Assembly: GCA_044892525.1 (NCBI GenBank)
Contig: CM097886.1
Coordinates: 29,326,001-29,390,000 of the forward strand
Source of the DNA: Schmidtea polychroa
Lineage: Eukaryota
Direction of reading: 5' to 3'
DNA: 64,000 bases
Made by a program: the position numbers and the translations under genes. Below, piece by piece: positions 57,717 through 60,980 of the stretch (its first letter is position 1; every line of letters begins with the position of its first letter). The notes beneath the pieces are model-generated. The model was not told the DNA's origin, did not search any database, and saw only the letters and a program-made list of their open reading frames with translations.

Positions 57717-59846
57717 AAACAAGTAAATCATTTATTATACATAAAAATGGAAAAAAATAATAAAAATTTATATACAACCTTATTTTTACAAAATCAATTT
57801 CAAATATTCCCTCTTTCACTAGTTATTTTTGGAAAATCTTCAGACATGTCTAAATTAAATTACCAAATTGTTATAGACATTTTTTTTCAATTCTTTTTTA
57901 ATAAATCTATTTTTGATGGCTAAAGAATTGAAACCGTGTTCTCAATTTAAAGACGTCCTAATGCTCCCTTACAGTTTTCTGAATGTGATTTTCATTGGTT
58001 TCAGAAACGGACTGTATGATAACAGATTTATTTCCAAATTGTTCAAAAATAATGGATAGGGGTATTGTTATGGCTGAAGTAATATCCACTTTCATCTAAT
58101 TTTCCAAGGAAGTTGAGTAATTATTGTAAAAAGCAAGTTATACACTTTGATGAGATGGTCAACTTAGTGCAGTCGTTACGCATAAGTATATAGCTGTTAT
58201 ATAATTTTCCTCTTTCCAGGTGTTGAATAAATATTCGTCAATATAAATATTAAATTTGCTTCCTAAAAAAGTCTTACAATTATAATCCAGTCAGAATAAT
58301 ATTTTACAGTAAATGATCTAAACGGTCTTTGAGAAATATGAAAATCATTATTCTTAAAAAGGTAATTTTCTTGCGGTTTTTTTTCAAAGGTTGTCCAGAA
58401 AATCCAATAATTTATTTCCAATTCTTTCAGAAAGTGTTTTTCTACAACCTTTTTCTGGTCTGAAAGATCAGTTTGATTAAATTTATATATCATTTTACCT
58501 AAGTATTGTTTTTTTGTCAATTTGTAGAAATAGCTCGCTACAAGTCATTAAAACCGAATGTAAGGCAAATAAAAATGTAAATTTAAATAAACATAAATTC
58601 GAAAATGAAAATACCATAAATGAGAAGGTTTGTAACTATATAATTTTGGAAAAACTAAAGAAAATAATTTTAGAAGCTTTATTATATGTAAATATTTAAT
58701 GCTTATTAAACATCTGATATTTATTTACAAATTTTAGTAAGTTTTAAGATTTAAAATTAAGAAAAACACAAAAAAAAAGAAATTTATAAAATAATAGTTA
58801 GACTTTTATTTAAAACCACCGTGATATTTTAATTAAATATGGAAAATAGATTAGAATTTAGATTAAAAAAAGTAAATATTATTCATTTTACGTTATAATC
58901 TTGTAAACCTGTTCAAAACCTCATTTAAATTAACAGAAACGAATATTATATTTTAATATAATATAATAATAATAAAGTGACATTTCTTTTATATAAATAT
59001 TCATATATCTAAATTAATTTAAAAAATTAATTAAAAAATGTTAAAGTATAAATTTATAAAAGTCCAATTACAAGTGTCACAAGAGGTGAATAAACTTTTA
59101 TAATACAGTTATCCTATTTTTATGAATTAGTATTTGTTTTTTTGCCATGCAAAACAGCTATTGAGTATCACACTTATAAAATGTGACACTTAACGAAAAT
59201 ATACTTTATTACAAATTTCATGATGAAATAATTTTAAAACATATTATTTTTATTAAATTCATAAAAAATTTAATTTCCAAAATTAAATCTATTTTTGTCA
59301 AATAATTTTAGTTAATACAAAAAATATTGAATTTTATTGATCTATTGTCATTCAAAAAATAAATGGATTTTTTAATTAAAAATTTTTATTTTAAACTCAT
59401 TTATATATAATCTCGAATTTAATTTAACTTAAATCTTTTAATACATTTTCAAAACTTTTCTTCCTCAAATTTTAAAAATTTATTTCCATGTCCTTCGGAA
59501 ATTCTTTGTCTGTTACCTCTTTTTCCTCCTTTTTATATTTGCAAATAATAGCTCTGTCTTTACTTTACCAGATTTCTAAAAATCATCCAAAATCATAATG
59601 ATTTTGGATTTGTCAAATTGTAAAATAATATCAAAATATTATTTTTTAAACTTTATTTTAGAAAGCCTTTACCATTTTACCAGTTTCTTCTCAAACATTT
59701 GATGCTACTCTAGATGCTCCTGACTAAATTATTTCAGAAATACCTGAAATACTGTCAAAACTTTAAATTAATTGTAGCTTAAATAAATAATAAATTATAG
59801 TATAAATAATATTTATTATAATATAAACATTACAGTGCAAATCCCA

Positions 59847-59888
59847 ATAGTAGACTAGTTTCGAGGTTTTGACTCTCATCAGTACTAT
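59847..59888 (-). ncRNA. Type I hammerhead ribozyme, family 2, copy B
   Basis: ATAGTA-CTGATGA-GAG/TCAAAAC/CTC-GAAA-CTAG-TC^TACTAT. Confidence 0.9.
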
Positions 59889-60257
59889 GCAGGAAACGCA
59901 AAGATTTCTCTTCGTGCCAGGTAAGTATTTAATATTGCTGATTCAACTCTATTTCATACTTTATCTGTTACACTGGAAATCACATCACTTGCAAATTAGC
60001 TAAATCACAGAAAGAATATCTGCAAACTTGTAAACCTGGCGTATGAAAAATCATATTCACCTCTGAAGACACCCTCTATACACAGGAACTGTTGACAAGT
60101 GCATCCGTTTGTAATGTTTATATTATTTTAATGTTAGACATCCGTAAAGAAATATTTTGCACCATCACAAGTTAAAAATGCTAAAGGTATGCAATAGAGT
60201 TGAATCAGCAATATTGTATACTTACCTGGCGCGAAAAGAAATCTTTGCGTCTCCCGC

Positions 60258-60299
60258 ATAGTACTGATGAGAGTCAAAAGCTCGAAACTAGTCTACTAT
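60258..60299 (+). ncRNA. Type I hammerhead ribozyme, family 2, copy C
   Basis: ATAGTA-CTGATGA-GAGT/CAAAA/GCTC-GAAA-CTAG-TC^TACTAT; TCCC (60252-60255) / GGGA (60301-60304) extends stem I. Confidence 0.93.
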
Positions 60300-60980
60300 T
60301 GGGATTTACACTGGGTATCACAAAGCTTGTAATGTTTATATTATTTTAATGTTAGACATCCGTAAAATATAAAAGTTTTACACCATTACAATATTTATTA
60401 TATATTTATATTTATAATATCAATATATAATAAGAATTTGATGGCATTATCGAATGGCACTGAAAAATTAATGAAGTGAATATCGATTATTGATTATTAA
60501 TCAAATCGACGTTCGATCGAGAAATAATAAAATTAAATATTATAGCGTCGATCAATGAGTAAATTTGGAATATTTCTATAATTAATTGATCAATTCCGTG
60601 TTCGTAGCCCAAATATCAGTTGCCATTTTTCAACCATTCAACTGTCATTTATAAAACATTAATAAATGAAACGAAAAATGAACTTGATAAATTATTAATC
60701 GGTGGACAATTCAGAATTCAAATGAATTTATAATATAAATAATAATTTATATTTTGGCCCTTCGACAATTTTATAATTCATAAATTCTTTGTTCTGTTAT
60801 CATTAATAAATTATATGGGTCATAATTTATGATGGCCATTACTATCATATTTGTCATTGATATTAAAATTATTATTATTATTATTATTTTATTATTTTAT
60901 AATTATAATTATTATTCGTATTATTATATAGTAAATTTATGAAAATTAAAAAAAATTATTAATAATCATATTATCTAGAA

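Follow-up and report, generated by a model that had tools for sequence, protein, structure and literature searches.

The back-to-back inverted pair of hammerhead motifs found in the window (the whole 64,000-nt stretch of Schmidtea polychroa DNA that was analysed) is real, and its two members together make up one old retrozyme insertion. Judging from the sequence anatomy of this insertion and of its relatives in the genome, it is quite likely that the locus goes back to one old retrotransposition, in which enzymes of a Penelope-like element (PLE) would have mobilised a non-autonomous hammerhead retrozyme.

A single insertion with two inverted arms

The insertion occupies 569 bp (59821–60389) and is enclosed by a target-site duplication (TSD) of 13 bp; its left copy (59808–59820, + strand) is repeated exactly in the right one (60390–60402, +) and is composed of A and T alone. 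In a control on 2965 AT-rich positions a duplication of length 13 never occurred, and lengths of 11–12 occurred at 15 positions. The initial annotation had raised the possibility that the two hammerhead copies have independent TSDs; we saw one TSD around both, which indicates a single event.

The left arm, B (59821–60108, − strand), is an inverted, 5′-truncated retrozyme copy with monomer positions 226–371 followed by 1–130; ∼14–16 nt are skipped after monomer position 130, and the arm ends at the short 3′-end of the family (∼161). The right arm, C, has two pieces: 60109–60188 (+, monomer 144–223) and 60184–60389 (+, monomer 1–205), the latter terminating at the long (‘tailed’) 3′-end of the family. 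The outer ends of the insertion are thus at monomer positions 161 (B) and 205 (C). At the inner joint, 60108/60109, the arms meet with zero overlap and with no palindrome (arm of 4 nt), and no flanking DNA is present between them. The inverted segments, 59833–59962 and 60184–60313, are 130 nt long and 92% complementary (they differ at 10 of 130 sites), with a gap of 221 nt between them, and both have an intact type I core, so the inverted pair described initially is borne out; so is the repetition of the 3′ tail at a spacing of 218, in the form of an exact 40-nt direct repeat (60109–60148, in the first piece of arm C, and 60327–60366) that extends to ∼65 nt at 88% identity. Departures from the sample consensus number 22 in 276 sites for arm B and 9 in 203 for the second piece of arm C, from which we conclude that the insertion is old. 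No ORF of at least 120 aa was found at the locus.

The right junction of the insertion is bridged by contigs of single-copy depth in two runs, X1 and X4, from two studies (these runs may include the source of the assembly itself); a contig of run X4 enters arm B from the left, by 14 nt only. Neither the junction between B and C nor that of the deletion described below was among the 32 contig pieces listed of ∼7,500. A joint skipping the entire insertion was not seen among the 15 listed of 41 joints, a count that says nothing on polymorphism. Runs X8 and X9, which are RNA only by guess, have contigs matching the retrozyme while most flank bins are empty; carry-over of DNA of a high-copy repeat would give the same picture.

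The 218-nt spacing comes from a local deletion. At 60184–60188 (+) ∼148 nt are missing (monomer 224–371), with short microhomology at the junction, and a 371-nt turn less ∼148 nt gives the observed period. With as many as 2 mismatches allowed, this junction occurs once in the 781 Mb of the genome, and at 60187 contigs of other copies run on into the full upstream sequence. The interval 60111–60328, initially taken for a circularly permuted unit, is therefore no such unit: the family repeats every 371–378 nt, and the 218-nt junction is unique in the genome.

The retrozyme family

The family to which the insertion belongs is, by its sequence features, an animal non-LTR retrozyme. The genome searched comprised 781 Mb, with four large contigs. 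A DNA search of it gave 1614 candidates, 40 of which were scored; the top 30 loci could be mapped on one monomer with a period of 371 nt. A second genome search found homogeneous arrays with a unit of 378 nt, reaching at least 10 units. Such low-GC tandem repeats without an ORF, with a unit within 150–450 bp, are typical of retrozymes: GC content of the monomer is 36–37% (37% in the array unit), and its longest stop-free frame has 79 aa. The TSD of 13 bp at the locus is longer than the 4 bp that retrozyme TSDs exceed. No ORF with reverse transcriptase (RT) and GIY-YIG domains, as in an autonomous PLE, is present at the locus or in the monomer.

A 33-nt stretch of the hammerhead had 885 exact genomic matches (control, 0). 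Capture–recapture with two exact-match lists (overlap 32 of 74) gave a rough figure of ∼2,500; since young copies appear in both lists, the true number of these dispersed, 5′-truncated copies is probably higher. The high self-pairing of a circular retrozyme monomer was seen here in computed folds only: the predicted energy of the array unit as a circle was −127.6 kcal/mol versus −76.7 ± 5.7 kcal/mol in 40 shuffles (z −9.0), and the monomer of one locus (L002) as a circle had z −5.1, also with 40 shuffles.

Another insertion of the family lies in the window at 39645–39925 (both strands). It has monomer 196–169 on the − strand, a U1-bearing piece, and monomer 299–167 on the + strand; its inverted part (39645–39715) is chimeric, with tail sequence abutting the U1-bearing piece, and makes up an internal inverted repeat together with the main arm. 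Elsewhere (L058; contig C2 of genome G000, near 10.18 Mb) an array of near-identical 378-nt units is probably young or homogenised; some of its units have an altered hammerhead core, with intact motifs spaced by 756 nt.

Head-to-head copies and the ends of the family

The first 100 exact matches listed, ordered by position, corresponded to 89 loci, of which 25 were head-to-head and none tail-to-tail; when three duplicates (L067, L068 and L086) were dropped, 23 of 86 loci were head-to-head and again none tail-to-tail, a proportion to be read with a sampling design that somewhat over-represents loci with two hammerheads. The adjacent inverted, 5′-truncated copy in head-to-head orientation that is typical of PLE units is thus present at our locus and at 23 of 86 loci; the back-to-back arrangement singled out initially does exist, but it is a common one in the family and a described PLE structure.

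Ends of the copies fall into two classes. Among 109 outer ends 70 were short (150–178), 32 long (185–218) and 7 other, i.e. 102 of 109 lay in two intervals in which 18.5 would be expected under a uniform distribution; the medians, 162 and 202, are ∼40 nt apart, and the cut site is at monomer position 110. The 5′ starts of 63 single copies were scattered. Head-to-head loci combined a short with a long end in 14 of 23 cases and two short ends in 5 of 23; two long ends were never combined (0 of 23). Together with the medians, this is the 30–40-bp tail at one end only that PLE units have.

A set of 84 loci (five were left out as duplicates or long arrays) was used for TSDs. A TSD of at least 10 bp that was not of low complexity was present at 10 of 84 loci, versus 1.0% of shuffled (mismatched) pairs, and 17 of 84 loci were in microsatellite runs (flanking low-complexity repeats of at least 16 nt). 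TSDs of the family are ∼9–13 bp long, and its targets, like those of PLEs, are AT-rich or microsatellite DNA. At the inner junctions we observed an overlap of 1–12 nt in 10 of 23 head-to-head loci; a palindrome with an arm of at least 10 nt, another feature of PLE inverted junctions, was found in 0 of 23 (longest, 8 nt). Three near-identical loci (L066–L068) share one head-to-head copy through a segmental duplication; the frame beside this copy is presumably RING-finger-like.

Hammerheads and predicted folding of transcripts

Hammerhead C (60249–60313, +; Rfam HH9, E 0.006) has the canonical type I form (defined in PMC4209133), with a helix I of 6 bp and its extension, a helix II of 4 bp and a helix III of 2 bp with a palindromic loop; the cut is predicted after 60293. 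Hammerhead B (59833–59897, −; Rfam HH9, E 0.72) is of type I with an intact core and a predicted cut between 59853 and 59852; its stem II is weakened by a private G-to-C change present in 0 of 99 sampled copies. Both HH9 matches are below the gathering score, which nothing at the locus reaches. Weak Rfam matches near the insertion (U4, snoRNA, GAIT) were dismissed as chance. The stem I extension, initially reported as kept in both copies, was seen in the predicted folds of both; the CGCGAA..CTTTGCG hairpin, reported likewise, is the upstream hairpin in the predicted fold of C, and its sequence is retained in B.

Motifs with a 2-bp helix III and a palindromic loop require a second copy nearby, with which they form a dimer (PMC4209133). 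In our predictions a double-hammerhead structure scored −18.8 kcal/mol versus −1.0 kcal/mol for the constrained monomer; C alone formed stems I and II with a probability of ∼0.95, and stem II of B had ∼0.25. Two consecutive hammerheads on the same strand, the mark of an ‘active’ copy, occur in the arrays of the family but not at 59821–60389; having one hammerhead per strand, this locus is a dead derivative copy.

Transcription from either side would yield the antisense arm first, and the hammerhead is blocked in prediction: read-through transcripts in the two directions formed 135 or 151 long-range pairs, the pairing probability of the hammerhead was 0.0, and forcing it cost ∼68 kcal/mol. A read-through transcript is thus predicted to give dsRNA in a long hairpin, with neither self-cleavage nor a circular product. 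The ∼140 bp of dsRNA put forward in the initial annotation agrees with these pair counts; the self-cleaving RNA that it expected from either side is contradicted by the same folds and by the 2-bp helix III.

Proposed mechanism and alternative explanations

The retrotransposition that we favour could have proceeded as follows. Dimeric hammerheads would process array transcripts to monomers or circles, and the two strands of the target would be nicked, 13 nt apart, by a GIY-YIG endonuclease; each free 3′ end would prime a cDNA on tandem or circular RNA, B being primed from the short end and C from the long one. End joining of the two truncated cDNAs at their inner ends would then give the head-to-head form, and the ∼148 nt of C might have gone either through a jump of the RT or through a later deletion, leaving the spacing of 218 nt. 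Since the outer ends are 3′-ends of the family while the inner ends are unrelated, we infer two primings, one per nicked strand. Reverse transcription along tandem or circular RNA with a switch between strands, as proposed initially, agrees with this scheme; from that interpretation as a whole the single event, the template with a strand change and the dsRNA stand, whereas the 218-nt unit and self-cleavage do not.

Two uncommon variants occur in both arm B and arm C, a combination present in 0 of 88 other pieces. Their identity, 92.3%, equals the cross-locus median, however; for 18 arm pairs identity within a locus was 93.5% versus 92.5% across loci, only 10 of 18 pairs exceeding the cross-locus median, and at least one rare variant is likewise shared in 21% of the comparisons between loci. 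As the identity is at background level and the family-wide test of arms is nearly null, origin of B and C from the same template is weakly shown. The DNA anatomy is compatible both with copying of arm B from RNA and with its copying from new DNA, and cannot tell the two apart.

A single event might also have produced the inverted arm by self-priming (fold-back) or by copying of the new DNA strand. Fold-back was proposed for PLEs from palindromes at inverted junctions (PMC3846280), and the two variants common to B and C would fit it, as would the start of the deletion (monomer 224) almost at the start of the inverted arm (226); if C was once full length, B could be its copy. We consider this route unlikely, given that the palindrome arm is 4 nt at the locus and that none of the other 23 loci has a palindrome, that the positions at which the arms end on the inner side bear no relation to each other, and that B contains monomer 226–371, now missing from C, so B is not a copy of present-day C. 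Two independent insertions placed back to back in an AT-rich spot are very improbable, and this explanation is already largely refuted: an abundant family that prefers AT-rich DNA, with B and C no more alike than the family background, could in principle supply them, but one 13-bp TSD encloses both arms with nothing of the flank in between, and 23 head-to-head loci versus no tail-to-tail ones, with short ends paired to long ends, would not be expected from chance neighbours.

It is barely credible that the inversion was created by misassembly of a high-copy repeat. The absence of the inner junction among the listed contig pieces would suit such an error; yet the TSD is present, the arms have 10 differences in 130 sites, the same form recurs with different junctions at 23 other loci, and contigs from runs of two studies span the right junction. 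Hardly more probable is a 218-nt circular RNA, capable of self-cleavage in both orientations, of which 60111–60328 would be the trace in the genome. The exact 40-nt repeat at this spacing speaks for such a circle, as does the fold of the 218-mer, predicted to be modestly better as a circle than shuffles (z −2.8). Against it are the single occurrence of the junction in the genome, the family monomer of 371–378 nt (z about −8 to −9 for the array unit) and the blocking of the hammerhead upon read-through; moreover, with one hammerhead per strand, cleavage cannot release a 218-nt unit.

A U1 snRNA segment in the monomer

Monomer positions 35–50 (60218–60233, +, in arm C) are an exact copy of nucleotides 1–16 of the host U1 snRNA (U1 genes at L202–L207). 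The match begins at U1 +1, and the segment is ∼30 nt upstream of the hammerhead core; in arm B (59913–59928, −) 15 of 16 nucleotides match. The + strand of this B segment reads as what we take to be a consensus-type splice donor. The longest monomer matches to U2, U4 and U6 had 7–9 nt. Among 2000 pair-shuffled monomers none reached 16 nt to U1 (maximum 14), and the chance of the match, in a test that was post hoc, is ∼6e-8 for that 16-mer and ∼9e-6 for any U1 16-mer. Five of the letters lie past the part of U1 that pairs with splice sites, at an extra chance of ∼2e-4; these matches argue against a plain antisense donor. All 16 letters were kept in 43 of 73 sampled pieces and the first 11 in 57 of 73. 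The 16-mer has 1,081 exact genomic matches, and all of the first 30 listed belong to the retrozyme family.

Considering these data, the 16-mer is likely to derive from U1; most likely, U1 1–16 would have been captured once, by a template switch of the RT in an ancestor of the family. One could speculate further that the retrozyme not only captured the host U1 5′-end but also uses it, and that its circular or monomer RNA could act as a U1 mimic, though we regard this as doubtful. In the predicted fold the first 11–12 nt of the segment pair with a donor-like stretch at the monomer 366–7 join, the pairing on the sense strand including G–U pairs. Conservation of U1 positions 1–11 in the family ranked 30 of 315 windows, modestly above average and too weak for selection on the segment to be claimed. 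If the RNA were a U1 mimic, the segment would be held in a hairpin against the donor-like stretch and could mask its own donor, avoiding splicing, or bind host donors; each copy in the genome would, besides, place a consensus-type donor in antisense orientation, at >1,000 sites altogether. If functional, the segment would link a parasitic small RNA to splice-site recognition.

A literature search at the level of titles and the beginnings of abstracts found no U1 segment in a retrozyme or ribozyme-bearing repeat, although supplementary lists of retrozymes may already include the family. A scan of metagenome contigs for U1 plus hammerhead gave 14 stretches, which we attribute to chance as both hammerhead stems were present in none, and thus no other example. 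The host U1, U4, U2 and U6 genes are in long tandem arrays (genome G000, contig C4 near 74.0 and 79.0 Mb and contig C2 near 17.2 and 142.9 Mb).

Search for a helper PLE and surroundings of the insertion

GIY-YIG domains in the genome gave 143 scored matches of 2572 candidates; GIY-YIG copies are thus abundant, but 50 loci taken from these matches had no end repeats with homology to the monomer, and no helper PLE emerged from them. Two clear monomer matches at GIY-YIG loci were retrozyme copies nearby. Searching by tblastn with two PLE fragments of the window matched 13 of 151 loci. PLEs adjoining the retrozyme at four loci (L008, L035, L047 and L139) were rejected as helpers, since the junctions look like neighbouring or nested insertions. 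At four further loci (L182–L185) a PLE-like family has open frames of 451–856 aa with a GIY-YIG-type domain at the end and is a candidate for an intact element; a motif scan found no hammerhead in it.

The window itself has fragments of a separate PLE family at 627–1012, 1961–3373 and 27867–29093, in tandem and inverted pieces; 28249–28737 has a weak Pfam match to the GIY-YIG C-terminal frame, and minimal hammerhead motifs are in the PLE fragments at ∼699, 3251, 28973 and 29117. GC content of the window is 17–39% in 2-kb bins, and transposon remains are many. Broken frames of DNA transposons are at 55498–57278, 61174–63006, 7422–8708 and 45371–47702: hAT-type ones on either side of the insertion, one with a MULE domain, and a long frame to which Pfam gave no match. 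A fragment of small-subunit rRNA (15089–15319; Rfam, 59 bits) in a non-rDNA context is probably a pseudogene piece.

Comparison with known systems

Animal non-LTR retrozymes have been described by Cervera and De la Pena (2020; PMC7229834) and by Li, Clavereau and Pollet (bioRxiv 10.64898/2026.07.22.740005). Our family resembles them in its type I hammerhead, tandem units that are poor in GC, a few hundred bp long and free of ORFs, longer TSDs, self-paired predicted circle, many solo copies and the presence of PLEs in the genome. It differs in the U1-derived segment, not described in the available portions of these two texts; the word ‘inverted’ is absent from the available text of PMC7229834, and the part of bioRxiv 10.1101/2022.05.23.493040 at hand has nothing on inversions. 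The case for PLE helpers, as far as published in the portions available, is made from co-occurrence and similarity of end repeats, while here it is made from the anatomy of insertions, no end-repeat homology having been found in the loci searched.

Insertion units of PLEs include a truncated copy in inverted orientation next to the main one, in most cases head-to-head, together with a tail of 30–40 bp at one end and a TSD of ∼8–10 bp (PMC3846280 and PMC8557442). Like the units of endonuclease-positive PLEs, as far as these are described there, the retrozyme has partial tandems, microhomology junctions, deletions and AT-rich or microsatellite targets; unlike PLEs, it is without an RT or GIY-YIG ORF and without a palindrome at the inverted junctions. 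In place of the minimal PLE form, seen at 699, 3251 and 28973 of the window, it has a canonical hammerhead whose helix I is extended.

U1-derived sequence built into a non-autonomous retroelement has a parallel in SINEU of crocodilians, where it was ascribed to template switching (Kojima 2015; PMC4494074). SINEU elements, as described there, have pieces of U1 or U2 as 5′ heads, a polyA tail and Tx1 helpers. In the retrozyme, by contrast, only U1 1–16 is present; these 16 nt are internal to a hammerhead tandem unit that has no polyA, with predicted pairing in cis to a donor-like stretch.

In twin priming of L1 both ends of the cut target serve as primers, so that two cDNAs are made and the copy enclosed by a single TSD has a head-to-head inversion; the template is a linear RNA, on which the second priming site is immediately upstream of the point where the first cDNA stops. 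The retrozyme has the same head-to-head inversion within one TSD but, unlike in L1, both arms start at fixed ends of the family and overlap in sequence, so that a tandem or circular template is needed. The priming sites that the two family ends imply are fixed, lying ∼52 and ∼92 nt past the cut site in the downstream direction, and can be assayed. The inverted pair itself is an ordinary insertion scar of the PLE type; mobilisation of retrozymes by PLEs is a published hypothesis, and in this family the PLE insertion signature is present with countable numbers.
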